The notes under the pieces are model-generated. The model did no database searches and was not told the origin of the DNA. It was given only the letters and a program-made list of their open reading frames with translations. A stretch of DNA of 9,381 nucleotides from a virus. Taxonomy: Duplodnaviria > Heunggongvirae > Uroviricota > Caudoviricetes. Position numbers and translations under genes: made by a program. Location of the stretch: IMG/VR virus record IMGVR_UViG_2675903336_000010; one strand, 5' to 3'. Positions 236 to 8,380 of the stretch are shown piece after piece; within the stretch, counting starts at the first letter, position 1; every line of letters begins with the position of its first letter.

Positions 236-1318
236 TCATTTTCTCTGGCTGATCTTTACCGGATAACCATCCCGAAGATCAATTAAGTGCTCCGGTTCAG
301 AAGCAAACCATGCATAAGATCCCCACGCCAATTCTGGTATTGCCTTTTTAAAAGGCAGAGCACTTCTGTCCATAAATGCCGTAAGGAATGCAAGATTTTT
401 CTCGCTGAACCCAGCGTCAATAGCCAAATGAGTGAGAGTAACTTTTCGTTCCCTGTTTATAGGCCCATCTGTCGCAACTACTTCAGTGAAAACTACAAGC
501 ATGTCCGAACCCGTTCGGTCCTCTCCCAAATCAATCAAAATAATATCTGGAAGTGCTTTTGAGGCATCAATATTCAGCCCCAATGCTTTTGCCAATACAT
601 CATCCTGAGCAACAACTTTATTCCCGGATTCAGACAACCAGAGCACAGTTGGATTCTTAAGAAAATTAGGAGCAAAAACTTCGATGACGGCCTTAGCTAT
701 TGTACTTGACGGGCCCGGAGCTAAAGTTCTCTTCTCTCCATTTGGGAAAGTGACGACTACGGCATCAGCAGCAATCACTGCCCCTGATTTCAATAAACGC
801 AACCTAGCAAGAGCGGCTTTGTTCAAATGATTTTCTTGCCAGGAACTTATTGCACTCAGCAGCGAATCTCCTTCAAGCCCGGCATCAAAGAGTGCTGCAA
901 AAGAGCGATTCAAACTGTAACGAGGACGAGAGGATGTGGTGGGTATACCTTTACGCTCAACAATTGCATTGCAAGGTATTAGGCCATTTTTTATAGTTTC
1001 ATCACGTATTGGCTCACGCGTATTTTCCGCATACCATGCATCAGCAGGCCTTATCTTTTGTTTAGAGAAAGTCATCTTTACCCAGCTTTCTCTGGACGCA
1101 TCATCAGTAAGAGCAGCCTGCGAATCTCCCATACTTACAACCTGGCTGGGCCTTATCCATCGCCCCAGCCCCTCAACCGCACCAGCATAAAACATGACAA
1201 AAATTGTTTTTGCAGCTATTTCCCGAATTAAATATCCACGATTCTCAGTCCCTTCAGGGAAAATTAATTGTAATCTTTCCCGGATAACATTCAATGGGGG
1301 AACAACAGGCAGATTCAT
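236..1318 (-). CDS. Putative type II restriction endonuclease (partner of the adjacent methyltransferase); family not assignable by eye, possibly BsuBI/PstI-like
   Basis: 360-aa ORF whose ATG overlaps the methyltransferase stop by 4 bp (ATGA at 1315-1318), implying translational coupling. C-terminal half has a PD...E-x-x-K-like arrangement (LPDIILIDL ... VVFTEVVATDGPINRERK). Region is AT-rich like the methyltransferase gene. No sequence search possible. Confidence 0.5.
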   Translation of the reverse strand: MNLPVVPPLNVIRERLQLIFPEGTENRGYLIREIAAKTIFVMFYAGAVEGLGRWIRPSQVVSMGDSQAALTDDASRESWVKMTFSKQKIRPADAWYAENTREPIRDETIKNGLIPCNAIVERKGIPTTSSRPRYSLNRSFAALFDAGLEGDSLLSAISSWQENHLNKAALARLRLLKSGAVIAADAVVVTFPNGEKRTLAPGPSSTIAKAVIEVFAPNFLKNPTVLWLSESGNKVVAQDDVLAKALGLNIDASKALPDIILIDLGEDRTGSDMLVVFTEVVATDGPINRERKVTLTHLAIDAGFSEKNLAFLTAFMDRSALPFKKAIPELAWGSYAWFASEPEHLIDLRDGYPVKISQRK

Positions 1319-3147
1319 GCAATCATCACTCCATAGAAACCAGCGATAGTTCTCTCAATAATCCGTCTGTGGACGCCAGCATCAATTAACGATTGAATCT
1401 CCATCACCTGCTCCAGAGAAGGCAACGGGATTGAATTCAATTCATAGGCCGAAACAGCAACACTTCCGCTTATACACCTGAACGCCCGATCGACAACATG
1501 CGAATTAAGTAGCATATCAATAACATCAGGGCGAACCGCAGAGAACAATCCGTTTGAATATACAATATTAATATGGTTTTCAACTACTACGCCACCAGTT
1601 TCATCTATAAATCCCTGAGGTAAAATTGCCGCTAAAATCCTTCTGTCCTGTTCCTTCGATGTTGTCCGCTGAACAAGCACACATTCAGATTTTGTCACAA
1701 GGAAACCCTGTTGTGGGGTTATATCGATATAGGGAACATGATTTTTTCTGTCTGCACTAAAACGAAAACCAGCTGAAGTTATTGATTCCGCCCAGACTAA
1801 TGGGTAGCTATTTTTTCCTTTCGTCGTACGCAACTGCGACTTAAATCGATTCCAGACTAACTGACCTGTAGAGACTGAGTATCCCAGATCAGCTAAACGC
1901 GTAGACATCTGTTTTAATACATTAAGAAAACAGGCATCATCTTTAACGCGTGGCAAAAGCCACGTTGCTCCACCTTTTTCTATATCAACATTACCTATTT
2001 TCTCAATTTTTGCTTTGTTCAACCCCTTAGGGACAAGTGAGGATACCTGGGCCCGAACTTTATGTTCTCCCGCCTTGAATGCTGTCAACATTGTTTCCTG
2101 GAGAACATCGTCAAAGACCCCATCCCTGTCAGTGACGAAATCAAGGGCATACGGAGTAGTTTTTTCGGTCAAAAGGGTTCGCAGCGCGGTGAAATACTGC
2201 CCACCAAGAAAAGAAGTTGGCGTAAGAAATGCAATAACTCCTGTTTTCTCTTTAACCATGCGAACAGCTAAGTCGGTGAACAATCCATATAGATTTGCAT
2301 GACCAAATAACGAACGAGAATATTTTTCTCTCGTTTTAATATCGAGAGTGACACGTCCGTAAGGCGGATTCCCTACCACAAGATCATAACCAGAAAATTT
2401 ATCTTGCTGAAGCGCATCAGCAACAATAATTGTATCTTCAGGCAATCTACGTTTTACCTTTACACATAGTGGCATTAGTACAGATTCGAGCAATACCAAA
2501 CTCATCCAAGCCGCAAATGGATCGATCTCTATCCCCTTTAAACGACGACTGATTCTCCTCAACATCCATTCAGGGGAAGACCCCTTGTCTTTTTTTAACA
2601 TTCGAATGGCTACTGGTGCCAAAAATGCACCGCCACCACACGCAGGATCAATAACCGATGCATGAGAAAAATCAACACCAGACTTTTCAGCCAGGTCCAA
2701 GAGACGCGCTACCAAAGGTGGGGGGGTATAGTAAGCCCCCAATTCCGAACGGTAAGCGGATGGCAGCATTACCGTATAAATTGACCCAATCAGATATCCA
2801 GCGTCCTCCGCCGGAAATTGAGCAATAAGCTCACCTGTTCGTTCAGCGAGCTCGCGTGCATCACATGGAATGTCTTCTATGTAAACAGTGTGCGGTACTG
2901 CCCTCATTTTAATGCTGCTTTTTTGCTTTTTTGCAAGGGTATCCCAATATGCAGCTACGATGCTGAAGCAGTATGAGCGGGCATGCATCAACCTTGACTG
3001 CCCGGTTTTGTAATTGCCCGCATAACCTTTGGCCATGGCTTTACAAGTTTGATATCTTTCCAGATTAGAAAACTCATTATCTGTAAAAAAATCAAAATGT
3101 TGCACATTCATAATGTAAAATCCTAATGTATCAAACATGCGGGCCAT
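1315..3147 (-). CDS. N6-adenine DNA methyltransferase, gamma class (motif order X-I-IV), with a long C-terminal putative target-recognition region
   Basis: 610-aa ORF. Motif X GAYYTPPPLVARLL (aa 137-150), motif I VIDPACGGGAFL (aa 165-176, verified at nt 2620-2649) and motif IV VVGNPPYG (aa 257-264, NPPY verified at nt 2359-2370). About 340 aa follow motif IV. Sampled 60-nt lines are about 30-45% GC versus about 57% in the phage core. Confidence 0.85.
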   Translation of the reverse strand: MARMFDTLGFYIMNVQHFDFFTDNEFSNLERYQTCKAMAKGYAGNYKTGQSRLMHARSYCFSIVAAYWDTLAKKQKSSIKMRAVPHTVYIEDIPCDARELAERTGELIAQFPAEDAGYLIGSIYTVMLPSAYRSELGAYYTPPPLVARLLDLAEKSGVDFSHASVIDPACGGGAFLAPVAIRMLKKDKGSSPEWMLRRISRRLKGIEIDPFAAWMSLVLLESVLMPLCVKVKRRLPEDTIIVADALQQDKFSGYDLVVGNPPYGRVTLDIKTREKYSRSLFGHANLYGLFTDLAVRMVKEKTGVIAFLTPTSFLGGQYFTALRTLLTEKTTPYALDFVTDRDGVFDDVLQETMLTAFKAGEHKVRAQVSSLVPKGLNKAKIEKIGNVDIEKGGATWLLPRVKDDACFLNVLKQMSTRLADLGYSVSTGQLVWNRFKSQLRTTKGKNSYPLVWAESITSAGFRFSADRKNHVPYIDITPQQGFLVTKSECVLVQRTTSKEQDRRILAAILPQGFIDETGGVVVENHINIVYSNGLFSAVRPDVIDMLLNSHVVDRAFRCISGSVAVSAYELNSIPLPSLEQVMEIQSLIDAGVHRRIIERTIAGFYGVMIA

Positions 3148-3361
3148 AACATCTCATGGTGGCGCATAGCAAACTGGCCCGAAGAATATCACGCACCAAG
3201 TCGATCTCATAACCCGTTATGACAATAAATCTTTGTAGCTGAACTCACTTGGTGATTTGTCAATCATTCCTGGCCTCCAGTTCGTCCTGAATCTCTTTAT
3301 CGAGTTCACCGTATTTGTTAGTCCTCATCACTCACGACTTGACTTCCAGAAATAACCTTGA

Positions 3362-4960: not shown

Positions 4961-5445
4961 TTACTTCACAACTCCCGGAAAGCTGACATTTGAACGCCAG
5001 CTATCCCAGTTAAACGTCACCCACCGACAACCGTTCATGGTCATGCGGTCCATAATCCTCTCACCAAGAAGCGTGCTCATTGCGGCATGATTCAGGTTTG
5101 TTAACATCCCGACACTGCACAGTGATGCTGTCCGGCGATCAATTATCTGGTGCAATACCACCTGCTCGTTTTTCGTCTCCCGCTGAATGCCTATTTCATC
5201 CAGGACCAGCAAATCAACCCCGCAAAGCTCCTGTAAAAATTTTTCACCGGATTTGCCGTTGTCGTAGCTGTCATGCAACACGCTCATGACATCAGACTCG
5301 GTGACGATAATCACGCTGCGCCCCTTCGCCATCAGCCGGTTACCCATCGCCGCTGCAAGGTGATTTTTCCCGGTGCCGGTTTTACCGCTGAACACAAAAT
5401 TCGTGCACCCGGTCATCAGTTCGTCAGCTATGGATTTGGCCTGGC
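4961..5445 (-). CDS. DnaC-like helicase loader (lambda P analog / YdaV-like AAA+ ATPase), N-terminus lost in the assembly gap
   Basis: Walker A FVFSGKTGTGKNHLAAAMG and Walker B DLLVLDEIG. The frame stays open upstream of the first in-window Met (...QAKSIADELMTGC...) into the N-run, so the gene is truncated by the gap, not by a stop. Confidence 0.85.
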
Positions 5446-5705
5446 NNNNNNNNNNNNNNNNNNNNNNNNNNNNNNNNNNNNNNNNNNNNNNNNNNNNNNN
5501 NNNNNNNNNNNNNNNNNNNNNNNNNNNNNNNNNNNNNNNNNNNNNNNNNNNNNNNNNNNNNNNNNNNNNNNNNNNNNNNNNNNNNNNNNNNNNNNNNNNN
5601 NNNNNNNNNNNNNNNNNNNNNNNNNNNNNNNNNNNNNNNNNNNNNNNNNNNNNNNNNNNNNNNNNNNNNNNNNNNNNNNNNNNNNNNNNNNNNNNNNNNN
5701 NNNNN
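5446..5705. other. Assembly gap (260 N)
   Basis: Uninterrupted run of n from 5446 to 5705; true length and content unknown. Confidence 1.
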
Positions 5706-6507
5706 ATTTCTTCGGGTTTGCCCCGGCACGCAACGGGTATTCCCGCCAGACCTGTTCGAACACATCCGGATAATCCACTCGTCCCACAGGCTGCCCGGTG
5801 TTTTCCGGGGCTACCCGATCGGCTTCCCGCTGAATGGCGGAATCGGCTTCAGGCTGCTGCAGTTGGAGTGATTGCTCCGGCCTTGCGGTCATCACCTGCT
5901 GCACAGCGCCCGAATCGGCTTTCAGCGCATACGCTGAATCGGCTTCCGGTGTCGAGCCTGCTGGCTGACCAGGATTGACGGTCTGAACATCCCCTGCCTG
6001 GTTCGTGGCGTTTTTTACGCCATGGACCATAGTGTTTTGATCTTCTTTATCTGTATCTTTATCTGTATCTGTCGTGACTCGTCGTGACATGTGCGTGACA
6101 TTTCGTGACGCGCCGTGACAATCGCCATTTTGTTCCCGCTTTCTTTCCCTCTCTCGCTGCGCCCTCTTGCGCTCTGCAGGAGATTTTGCGGTTTGCGAAA
6201 TATTGCCGTTGTCCTCTTTAAGCACCTGGCGTTTTTCCCATCCAGTGATTAAATCACCATCAAGTACCCGCCCCTGCATCGTCTGCAAAATTGAATCAAT
6301 TACCTCTTCTGTCACGTCGAGCGCACTTGCCAAATCTTCTGTCGTGACATCAATGTGACCTCGCGTGACATTTCGTGACGCGCTCACCAGGAGGTGGATA
6401 TACACTGCCATCACTGTTGCAATTGGCTGCCCTGACACCCTGGCAATTGTTCGCCACTTAGGGTCATTTGGCATGTCATGCCATAATCTGAGCCAGGCGT
6501 TAGCCAT
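5706..6507 (-). CDS. Replication initiator / replisome organiser (lambda O analog, YdaU-like), C-terminus lost in the gap
   Basis: ORF track start 6513 is GTG; ATG at 6507 (MANAWLRLWHDMPNDPKWRTIARVSG...) has a GAGGTG SD upstream. Sits between the cII-analog and the DnaC-like gene, contains iteron arrays, and has a conserved-looking C-terminal start DYPDVFEQVWREYPLRAGANPKK before the gap. Confidence 0.7.
6073..6119. repeat. Iteron array 1: five direct copies of CGTGAC at about 10-11 bp spacing
   Basis: CGTGAC at 6073, 6083, 6094, 6104 and 6114 (gtCGTGACtc gtCGTGACat gtgCGTGACa tttCGTGACg cgcCGTGACa), helically phased, inside the initiator gene. Confidence 0.65.
6311..6379. repeat. Iteron array 2: CGTGAC at 6343, 6364 and 6374, variant TGTGAC at 6354, and an inverted copy GTCACG at 6311-6316
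   Basis: tgtCGTGACatcaaTGTGACctcgCGTGACatttCGTGACg. The 21-mer GCGTGACATTTCGTGACGCGC occurs in both arrays (6092-6112 and 6362-6382). Confidence 0.65.
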
Positions 6508-6578: not shown

Positions 6579-7004
6579 TCAATGTACTGCCACAGCATTT
6601 CCTGCCGGGCCACCACGGTTCATCTGATTGAAACCGGCGATTGCCACTGCGACAAAATCATCAGCGTCTCTCACCAGTCGTTCATGCGTCTCCACCAGTT
6701 CCCGAAAATAAGCTGAACTGTGGCTGCGCATTCGAGCCACCAGCGGAGGTGGCATTGCCCTTTCGATCGCAGGTAACAACGCCTGAATTTTTTCAACAGC
6801 GTCAGGGGTGTCTTTATCCAGCCAACGGAAAATCTTTTGGGTGTTGAGATAAAGCGTGTTGTGCTTGCTGTCGTTATGCAGAACCGGAAACGTCATTCCC
6901 AGTTCGAAATAAACCCTGGTTATTTCAGCTGCCGGAACTTTTTCACCGTCCGGATGCGCCCAGGCTTTCATCGCCATGCGGATGTGTTCATGCTTGATTT
7001 TCAT
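6579..7004 (-). CDS. ydaT: YdaT-like protein (Rac-type functional analog of lambda CII)
   Basis: 141-aa ORF starting MKIKHEHI..., which I recall as the N-terminus of Rac prophage YdaT. Its ATG overlaps the upstream cro-like stop (ATGA at 7001-7004). Confidence 0.65.
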   Translation of the reverse strand: MKIKHEHIRMAMKAWAHPDGEKVPAAEITRVYFELGMTFPVLHNDSKHNTLYLNTQKIFRWLDKDTPDAVEKIQALLPAIERAMPPPLVARMRSHSSAYFRELVETHERLVRDADDFVAVAIAGFNQMNRGGPAGNAVAVH

Positions 7005-7264
7005 GAATCAACCCCCGCCGATGGTTGTGTGTTAGCCTGAAACTCAGCAGGCAAGCCGTCAGTTGGGTTGGGGTAGGTTTTACTGTCAATCTCATGTGGG
7101 GTCACCACCCATCCCGTTGCTTCACACCAACGTAATATTTTTTCTCCTGTAAGTTTTGCACGCCCCGTTATAACGTGGCTGACCATCCCTTGGGATGCGC
7201 CAACAATCTCAGCAAATGAACTCTGGGTTATATGAAAATGATGCAAATATTCTCCAAGATTCAT
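7001..7264 (-). CDS. Cro-like HTH regulator (YdaS-like, XRE family)
   Basis: ORF track start 7291 is TTG; in-frame ATG at 7264 (MNLGEYLHHFHITQSSFAEIVGASQGMVSHVITGRAKLTGEKILRWCEATGW...) has an AGGG SD upstream. HTH signature SQGMVSHVITG. Divergent from the repressor across an operator-containing intergenic region. Confidence 0.7.
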   Translation of the reverse strand: MNLGEYLHHFHITQSSFAEIVGASQGMVSHVITGRAKLTGEKILRWCEATGWVVTPHEIDSKTYPNPTDGLPAEFQANTQPSAGVDS

Positions 7265-7298
7265 AATCCGCCCTATGTGATGTGTTACCAATGCATAA

Positions 7299-7341: not shown

Positions 7342-7375
7342 CAAAGTGATTAGCAATCTTATTAGAATTGGATGT

Positions 7376-7876
7376 ATGAAAAGAAAATCATTGTCAGACA
7401 CCGACCTCAACGCCGCCAGAAGACTGAAAGAAATCTGGATGGCAAAGAAATCTCAGTTGGGATTGACTCAGGAACGTGCGGCGGAAATTATGGGGTTTTC
7501 AACACAAGGGGCGGTAAGTCACTACCTAAATGGTCAAACCCCACTAAACCTTGAGGCTGTTCTAAAGTTTGCTGGCTTACTGAAAGTTCCCCCTGAGTCA
7601 ATCAGGCCAGACATGGTAGATTTGCTGCAAATTGCAAGGATGTATTGTCGAGAACCACAGCAAGATAACATAGTCGCATTACCAGCAGACACAGAACAAA
7701 CAGAGGATGAACTACCGTTTGCCGTAGAGCCGATGGAACGAGATTTAATCCATACGTTCAGAGCTTTTCCGAAAGAAGATCAAGAACACATGCTTCAGGA
7801 GATGAAAGATAAAAAAGAATCAATGGATCGTACGGTTGCGCGGTGGTTAGCTGCACAAAAAGGCCGTCGCGCCTAA
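7376..7876 (+). CDS. Prophage repressor, RacR/PaaR-like XRE-family HTH protein with no LexA-like peptidase domain
   Basis: ORF track start 7346 is GTG; first ATG at 7376 (MKRKSLSDTDLNAARRLKEIWMAKKSQLGLTQERAAEIMGFSTQGAVSHYLNG...). Classic cI/XRE HTH (LTQERAAEIMGFSTQGAVSHYLNG). Divergent from the cro-like gene. C-terminal half lacks any G-x-S-M/Ser-Lys autocleavage signature. Confidence 0.75.
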   Translation: MKRKSLSDTDLNAARRLKEIWMAKKSQLGLTQERAAEIMGFSTQGAVSHYLNGQTPLNLEAVLKFAGLLKVPPESIRPDMVDLLQIARMYCREPQQDNIVALPADTEQTEDELPFAVEPMERDLIHTFRAFPKEDQEHMLQEMKDKKESMDRTVARWLAAQKGRRA

Positions 7877-7895
7877 ATCAGAGGAGATATGTAAA

Positions 7896-8090
7896 ATGAG
7901 TACAGTCCTTTCCCCAATGGTTTCAGAATTTGAGACAGTTGAGCAAGAAAATAGTTACAACGAATGGCTGCGGGCCAAAGTAGCAGCAAGCCTCGCGGAT
8001 CCCCGCCCGGCGATTCCGCATGATGAGGTAATGGCGGAAATGGAACAAATTATTGCCCAAATTGCTGCTGCAACTCACAGAGGTGAATAA
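7896..8090 (+). CDS. Small acidic antitoxin of a ParE-family type II toxin-antitoxin pair (PaaA2/ParD-like)
   Basis: 64-aa ORF with GAGGAG SD 9 nt upstream of the ATG. Stop overlaps the toxin start (TAATG at 8088-8092). Sits 19 nt downstream of the repressor stop. Confidence 0.65.
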   Translation: MSTVLSPMVSEFETVEQENSYNEWLRAKVAASLADPRPAIPHDEVMAEMEQIIAQIAAATHRGE

Positions 8091-8380
8091 TGTTACCCGT
8101 TTTATGGCTACCATCTGCTCGTGATGATTTGCGCCAGATCGTAGCCTACATAGCTAAAGAAAATCCCGCGGCAGCACGCAGAATGAAAATTCGAATTGAA
8201 ACATCCGTTTTGCCGCTCACAGAGCATCCTTACCTGTATCCTCCAAGCGAGCGAGTTCTTGGTCTTCGTGAAATTGTAACTCATCCTAACTACATCATCC
8301 TTTACCGAGTAACAGCATCAAGCATAGAAGTAGTAAATATTGTGCATTCTCGAAGACAGTATCCAGGCAAAAACAGTTAA
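8090..8380 (+). CDS. parE: ParE/RelE-superfamily toxin
   Basis: 96-aa ORF with the typical ParE pattern: MLPVLWLPSARDDLRQIVAYIAKENPAAARRM...GLREIVTHPNYIILYRVTASSIEVVNIVHSRRQYP. Translationally coupled to the upstream antitoxin. Confidence 0.8.
   Translation: MLPVLWLPSARDDLRQIVAYIAKENPAAARRMKIRIETSVLPLTEHPYLYPPSERVLGLREIVTHPNYIILYRVTASSIEVVNIVHSRRQYPGKNS

Follow-up and report, generated by a model that had tools for sequence, protein, structure and literature searches.

Does the gene for a phage replication initiator carry, within its own codons, the origin from which the phage replicates? The question is raised by a 9,381-nucleotide (nt) stretch of DNA from a tailed virus (Caudoviricetes; IMG/VR record IMGVR_UViG_2675903336_000010), hereafter the window, in which two arrays of the hexamer CGTGAC lie inside a minus-strand gene for a replisome-organizer-like initiator. 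We refer to them as the N-domain array and the linker array, after the parts of the protein that they encode (coordinates are collected in Table 1). A first-pass annotation, made from the sequence alone, had proposed a candidate origin composed of initiator-binding iterons, and our comparative analysis supports this proposal. The repeats are real DNA elements, selected at the DNA level beyond the needs of coding. They are most likely the predicted binding sites of an embedded origin, and we put at roughly 0.78 the probability that a lambdoid prophage of the CP-933P/Tritos type has its replication origin here, inside the gene of its own initiator.

The hexamer CGTGAC occurs exactly nine times in the window, always within positions 6073–6379, and is the most locally clustered hexamer there. 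Shuffled windows (n = 200) contained a mean of 3.0 copies, with nine reached in a single shuffle; with nine copies present, the remaining eight would share the same 307-nt span with a probability of about 1.6e-12. On the coding strand of the initiator gene the unit reads GTCACG, CGTGAC being its form on the plus, antisense strand, and the candidate unit as a whole is asymmetric (about aTGTCACGc), with a core of 6–8 base pairs (bp) and a period of 10–11 bp. The plus-strand copies of the linker array start at 6073, 6083, 6094, 6104 and 6114, confirming the five copies at 10–11 bp spacing described earlier (10, 11, 10 and 10 nt). The four further units and one inverted copy reported between 6311 and 6379 were also found, comprising exact copies at 6343, 6364 and 6374, a one-mismatch TGTGAC at 6354 that fills the gap between them, and a single minus-strand copy at 6311–6316. 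The arrays stand in register at an offset of 270/271 nt and share an exact 21-mer (GCGTGACATTTCGTGACGCGC, at 6093 and 6363); the first-pass annotation was likewise right to place both in the N-terminal half of the gene (codons 43–55 and 130–145 of 356).

Comparison with relatives, which that annotation had suggested as a check, showed that both arrays are kept in most homologs. Homologs of the N-terminal domain were collected from phage records and from one genome per species, the latter giving 74 loci of 30–99% identity. They belong to Enterobacterales, Pseudomonas, Bordetella, Burkholderia, Ralstonia, sphingomonads and others, in both genomes and phages. Each was assigned a phased-array score, defined as the length of a chain of one hexamer at 9–12 nt spacing, or 19–23 nt if a unit is skipped. 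Within the first 600 nt of the gene the score was at least 4 in 63 of 75 loci and at least 5 in 58 of 75, while none of 343 control segments of 600 nt from the same loci scored above 3. Most loci have two arrays, at about nt 130–170 and 360–430 of the gene, and the linker array is found at the corresponding place in almost every homolog, among them the distant ones with a single array. In two complete phage genomes, those of Tritos and Firinga, the motif clusters at these two arrays only. The earlier remark that two separated arrays are unusual therefore holds relative to lambda and fails within the homolog family, where two arrays are the rule.

The sequence of the hexamer varies by lineage, and the two arrays of one gene share the same hexamer. 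GTCACG is used in E. coli, Shigella, Aeromonas phage pAEv1818, Pseudomonas phage phi1 and many others, and GCAACG in Ralstonia phage Firinga, Cupriavidus and Burkholderia; GTAACG, CGAACG(C) and GTGACG are the hexamers of other lineages. Within one sub-clade, Erwinia carries GTCACG where Pantoea and Enterobacter carry GTAACG, a C-to-A switch made at the same positions in both arrays. Inverted copies also recur at fixed places, at gene nt 192 in 15 of 27 GTCACG-type homologs and at nt 171 and 201 in the GCAACG-type homologs.

Three relatives deserve separate mention. The loci of Pantoea (L144) and Serratia (L132) have no N-domain array and carry, at nt 2001–3300, an insert of about 130 amino acids (aa) in the linker with a GIY-YIG-like motif (YVYFV...GIS.NPW.R), flanked by short ACTACG repeats; the insert is possibly a nuclease domain acquired at the candidate origin. 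In Pseudomonas phage phi1 (2501–3400) we found an initiator homolog, unannotated in the GenBank record, in which both arrays are intact. Its C-terminal half is unrelated to that of the E. coli protein, which shows that the N-terminal domain and its arrays recombine as a unit.

Is the conservation imposed on the DNA or on the peptide? The first-pass annotation had stated that each unit encodes Val-Thr, giving a repeated ASRNVT peptide. Some units do encode Val-Thr, but the units are read in three frames, since they are spaced by 10 or 11 nt: those of the linker array encode Cys-His, Ser-Arg, Val-Thr, Ser-Arg and Val-Thr, and those of the N-domain array encode Ser-Arg, Val-Thr, Gly-His and Val-Thr. 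The same holds across the family. Among 218 adjacent unit spacings from 48 homologs, 165 are of 10 nt and 38 of 11 nt, all three frames are used, and only 13 spacings are multiples of three, ten of which are 21-nt steps spanning two units.

Codon usage leads in the same direction. We aligned the codons of 25 GTCACG-type homologs, which are drawn from different genera and share a mean amino-acid identity of 71%. In this alignment the codons within the N-domain array are synonymously frozen: Val47 is GTC, Thr48 ACG, Gly50 GGT and Val54 GTC in 25/25 sequences each, His51 is CAC in 24/24 and Thr55 is ACG in 24/25. The spacer codon for Arg49 is free (CGA 9, CGT 7, CGC 8, CGG 1), and conserved residues outside the array make use of all their codons. 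Third-position conservation is accordingly 0.91 in the array versus 0.53 outside it (Mann-Whitney p = 1.5e-5).

These data bear directly on the possibility that selection acts on the protein, the initiator needing a repeated ASRNVT-type peptide of which the DNA repeat is merely the shadow. SRNVT does recur in both arrays in many homologs, and an alignment of six sequences shows R135 and N136 to be invariant. However, the use of all three frames and the fixation of synonymous sites inside the hexamers, next to free codon choice at flanking conserved residues, strongly disfavor selection on the peptide. Moreover, a loop of a folded domain and a disordered linker carry the same DNA motif and switch it together, and one copy of the hexamer is inverted. 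We consider a peptide-level origin of the repeats highly improbable.

The motif could instead act in the mRNA, as a site for an RNA-binding protein or a translational pause signal, rather than in double-stranded DNA. The direct units do share one orientation relative to the gene in every homolog, as this would require. Against it, the 10–11-nt period corresponds to one turn of B-DNA, some members of the family retain inverted copies at fixed places, no Rfam family matches the region, and the AT-rich tract and palindrome adjacent to the linker array have precedents at the DNA level. A role in the mRNA is therefore very unlikely.

The tract in question directly adjoins the linker array. The guanine-cytosine (GC) content falls to 30% at 6026–6065, compared with about 55% around it, and the position of this minimum is conserved: in 52 of 56 homolog loci, the 30-nt stretch of lowest GC in the gene begins between 9 nt before and 42 nt after the end of the linker array, with a mean GC of 0.35 at the minimum versus 0.56 for the gene. 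Its sequence is nearly always (A/C)AGATAAAGATA or AGATACAGATAC. In the window the tract contains a 12-nt repeat, ATCTTTATCTGT (peptide TDKD; 6041–6072), whose copy number varies among E. coli strains. A longer TDKD run is present in strain 2013C-4187, and the proteins are 356 aa long, or 368 aa with the longer repeat (L002, 1238–2344), so that the candidate unwinding tract is length-polymorphic. Beyond the tract lies an inverted repeat. In the same 56 loci, hairpin-capable inverted repeats are enriched within 120 nt after the linker array (Mann-Whitney p = 3e-10), and a perfect stem of at least 7 bp follows it in 36% of loci versus 7% of controls.

The product of the gene has the makings of an initiator. 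In the window its 3' part, together with the 5' end of the next gene, is masked by a run of Ns, and full sequences of the masked genes were taken from near-identical E. coli records (L001, L002). Of 5426 complete E. coli genomes, 2237 carry unmasked copies at 98–99% identity, and so do seven sequenced phages, including Tritos and Evi. The protein begins with a predicted winged-helix domain, continues with a basic helix and a disordered linker, and ends in a DnaD/DnaT-like part whose last 24 residues resemble the C-terminus of DnaT. It matches PHROG 3729 over its full length (residues 1–356 of 356, E = 1.6e-257), and the label of that group, "replication initiation protein", is itself an annotation; database names for the protein are "phage replisome organizer" and "DnaT-like ssDNA-binding domain-containing protein". 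Roughly 960 homologs were found.

Profile searches were less informative for the N-terminal domain, for which no significant Pfam or NCBIfam family was found. PF09681 scored below its cut-off (15.6 versus 23.3 bits) with a colinear match (5–123 against 1–119 of 121) and matched only 2 of 42 relatives at E < 1; TIGR01714 also fell short (15.4 versus 49.8). Phage_rep_O gave no hit in Pfam scans up to E = 1, and a sequence search of solved structures returned nothing useful. An AlphaFold2 model of residues 1–165 (mean predicted local distance difference test (pLDDT) score 71, and >90 over much of 11–90) places the winged-helix domain at 1–95 and the basic helix at 110–126, followed by the disordered linker. 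Among known folds, the model appears closest to the N-terminal domain of DnaD and may also resemble a RepA_N initiator. On this model the N-domain array encodes the end of helix 29–45 and loop 46–55, where confidence dips, and the linker array encodes disordered residues with pLDDT below 50; both are sites that, to judge from the model, can tolerate a sequence dictated by the DNA.

The genes around the initiator place it in a recognizable setting. Judged by sequence, the window belongs to a CP-933P-type lambdoid E. coli prophage, whose immunity switch, paaR2-paaA2-parE2 / ydaS-ydaT, has been characterized (PMC8630535, PMC9986795). The divergent paaR2-paaA2-parE2 genes occupy 7346–8380, with clear matches to PaaA2 (PF21217) and ParE (PF05016). 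The gene directly downstream of the initiator encodes a DnaC/IstB-like protein that matches PF01695 (IstB_IS21) at E = 5e-18, and at 2.8e-19 for the full-length 248-aa copy in L001. In relatives, the gene beside the initiator encodes a DnaC-like, a DnaB-like or a 610-aa "P" protein, and the regulators differ. In phage Tritos (L003/L163, 32105–33638) the same initiator is followed by a 141-aa hypothetical gene in place of the DnaC-like loader, so that the loader cannot be an obligate partner; host factors may instead be recruited through the DnaT-like C-terminal tail. The prophage also carries a restriction-modification pair on the minus strand (236–3147), composed of a BsuBI/PstI-type endonuclease (360 aa; PF06616 and PF17728) and an Eco57I/N6-adenine methyltransferase-like enzyme (610 aa).

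Table 1. Features of the candidate origin and its surroundings (window coordinates)
Feature	Position	Strand	Description
Helicase-loader gene, DnaC/IstB-like AAA+	4961–5445	-	Directly downstream of initiator; 5' end masked
Initiator gene, replisome-organizer-like	5428–6507	-	ATG at 6507, stop at 5428; 356 aa in unmasked relatives
N run	5446–5705		260 Ns masking initiator 3' part and 5' end of DnaC-like gene
Inverted repeat	5999–6029		13-nt arms, 85% complementary; perfect core TGGCGT/ACGCCA; 5-nt loop; directly beyond AT-rich tract
AT-rich, purine-rich hexanucleotide tract	6034–6072	-	Coding strand ACAGATACAGATAAAGATACAGATAAAGAAGATC..., peptide TDTDKDTDKED; candidate DNA unwinding element
Linker array	6073–6119	-	Five GTCACG units, 10/11-nt spacing; codons 130–145, disordered linker; candidate core iteron array
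Inverted hexamer, single	6311–6316	+	CGTGAC on coding strand, codons 64–66, LDVT
N-domain array	6343–6379	-	Three exact GTCACG and one GTCACA; codons 43–55, helix end and loop before helix-turn-helix
ydaT (CII-like)	6579–7004	-	Upstream in same rightward operon
YdaT operator TTGATTTTCATGAATCAA	6994–7011		At ydaS/ydaT junction; exact match to published TTGATTN6AATCAA
ydaS (Cro-like)	7001–7291	-	Upstream in same rightward operon

This setting invites another explanation of the arrays, namely that they are operators at which a different protein (PaaR2, YdaS, YdaT or a host factor) controls transcription of the replication genes. The rightward early transcript does run across the arrays, and the initiator is, for its part, a predicted binder. 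However, PaaR2 and YdaS protect palindromes of the GTTTAGTAA type (PMC8630535), and YdaT binds TTGATTN6AATCAA (PMC9986795), a site unlike the arrays that is intact at the ydaS/ydaT junction; all three were rejected as array binders on these grounds. The arrays also persist while neighboring genes and regulators change among homologs, and a host factor is an unlikely binder, given that relatives with closely related hosts differ in motif. An operator would fit the neighboring AT tract and inverted repeat less well than an origin does. A promoter scan returned one weak sigma-70-like match over the linker array, on the plus strand, in a count not above that of shuffled sequences. Overall, we regard the operator explanation as improbable, if somewhat less so than selection on the peptide or a role in the mRNA.

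The features of an embedded origin come together at this locus: same-sense repeats of one motif within the coding sequence of an initiator, an adjoining AT-rich region, selection at the DNA level with conservation, and an adjacent gene for a helicase or its loader. The comparative predictions of the origin reading were likewise borne out, as the arrays are conserved and under DNA-level selection, their motifs change in pairs, the AT tract follows the linker array, a helicase-loader gene lies next to the initiator and the sites of the known regulators differ from the arrays. We infer the initiator as the binder, unwinding at the AT tract and the role of the N-domain array from this arrangement, and propose the following sequence of events. 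The N-terminal winged-helix domain, as monomers or dimers, would bind the asymmetric units. The phasing of such short sites by one helical turn, every 10–11 bp, suggests head-to-tail oligomers of bound initiator, all along the same face of the DNA helix. Such an oligomer would be nucleated by the linker array beside the (A/C)AGATA tract, which would then be opened, and the DnaD/DnaT-like C-terminal part and the downstream DnaC-like loader would bring in host DnaB. That a second selected array carries this motif too suggests that the protein may be loaded there as well. This N-domain array, with its inverted copy, lies about 230 bp upstream of the core array and would have an auxiliary role: it could loop to the core array, or it could lend cooperativity to initiator loading and expression. 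The whole candidate origin would be transcribed from the ydaS-ydaT promoter.

Several observations weigh against the origin reading. Eight distant homologs have the linker array only, showing that the N-domain array is not universally required, and a few (L116, L118, L131, L136, L145) have weak arrays or none by the exact-hexamer criterion. Motif classes largely track clades, so that covariation of motif and protein is confounded by phylogeny, and co-inheritance alone does not identify the binder, because the arrays lie in the coding sequence of the N-terminal domain itself. Residues 67–77, at the usual position of a recognition helix, are acidic and hydrophobic and not obviously DNA-binding in a model of mean pLDDT 71. 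The missing DnaC-like gene of Tritos means that the loader step differs between relatives. Finally, the literature searched contained no paper describing the origin of this family or its two-array layout.

The homologs with a linker array alone also favor a narrower version, in which the origin consists of the linker array and AT tract only, and in which the initiator would bind the N-domain array separately, for autoregulation or as a roadblock, to limit its own synthesis. In its favor, only the linker array has an AT tract and an inverted repeat next to it, and the distance between the arrays ranges from 179 to 340 nt across homologs, with no independent sign of helical phasing; an apparent 10-nt coherence of this distance was traced to the presence or absence of units in related sequences and was rejected. 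On the other hand, the N-domain array is under clear DNA-level selection, has the same motif and is kept in most of the family, and what is known of it fits an auxiliary role in the origin equally well. We hold this narrower version to be possible rather than probable.

Returning to an origin that comprises both arrays, a wider generalization can be offered tentatively. The family may represent a widespread, previously undescribed class of bipartite phage origins, in which two helically phased arrays of 6–8-bp sites, one of them within the codons for the DNA-binding domain, are bridged over about 230 bp by an initiator oligomer that opens the (A/C)AGATA tract, and in which the hexamer is a switchable specificity code defining replication-compatibility groups of co-resident prophages. 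We consider it a speculative extension, which is rather doubtful in its full form. Matches in a plasmid collection proved to be prophages in large replicons or phage-sized circles and were uninformative on autonomous replication.

An origin inside a phage initiator gene is an already known kind of element. Four things appear, from the literature searched, to be new: the proteobacterial family itself, units that are short and in helical phase, a pair of arrays that is conserved and has one member in the codons of the DNA-binding domain, and motif switches that are repeated and coordinated. The module is common in complete E. coli genomes, including the CP-933P-type prophages of enterohemorrhagic E. 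coli, and its immunity switch is under detailed study. A defined origin would permit replication assays and incompatibility tests between co-resident prophages, and would aid the interpretation of in-situ amplification after induction. Some E. coli genomes carry up to four copies of the region, including variants of 80–90% identity, so co-resident prophages could share an iteron motif and cross-react. The (A/C)AGATA tract and the inverted repeat provide precise candidates for the unwinding and loading sites, and the layout could help to annotate prophage origins across many Proteobacteria. More generally, a DNA-binding protein that carries its own putative sites in the codons of its own domain is a natural experiment in overlapping codes. 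Because the sites are read in three frames and their specificity has switched several times, the family is well suited to studying how initiator–origin specificity evolves.

Among known systems, one of the closest parallels is phage lambda, whose origin lies inside gene O and consists of repeated initiator sites followed by an AT-rich unwinding region of about 40 bp that encodes the inter-domain linker (PMC6022878). As in lambda, the candidate origin described here is embedded in the initiator gene, its repeats are flanked on one side by an AT-rich region, and it belongs to a rightward early operon, after cro/cII-type genes and before a gene for a helicase-recruiting partner. The two differ in the initiator, which here lacks a match to Phage_rep_O, and in the sites. 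Each of the four lambda iterons is an 18-bp inverted repeat to which two O proteins bind (PMC6022878), whereas the present units are asymmetric, about 6–8 bp long and directly repeated every 10–11 bp, in two arrays about 230 bp apart, one of which lies inside the coding sequence of the DNA-binding domain.

Phages of Gram-positive hosts offer a second comparison. In the Bacillus phage SPP1, the replisome organizer G38P binds direct repeats (AB boxes) in its own gene 38, at oriL, beside an AT-rich unwinding element, and works with the loader G39P and the helicase G40P (PMC5737612, PMC6316719). The present initiator resembles G38P in combining a putative N-terminal DNA-binding part with a C-terminal part that would recruit a loader. 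It differs in that the replisome-organizer N-terminal models of Pfam and TIGRFAM score below threshold and in that its hosts are Gram-negative. SPP1 also has a second, intergenic set of repeats about 13 kb away, oriR, while here both arrays are intragenic and no such distal origin was found in the complete genomes of Tritos or Firinga. At the level of protein structure, the modeled N-terminal domain may resemble the DnaD N-terminal domain and RepA_N plasmid initiators. The replisome organizers of two lactococcal phages, ORF13 of TP901-1 and Rep2009 of Tuc2009, are described in summary as binding direct repeats within their own genes that serve as the origin (PMC8965321), and, as far as that summary description goes, the candidate repeats in the initiator gene of this prophage are placed in the same way.

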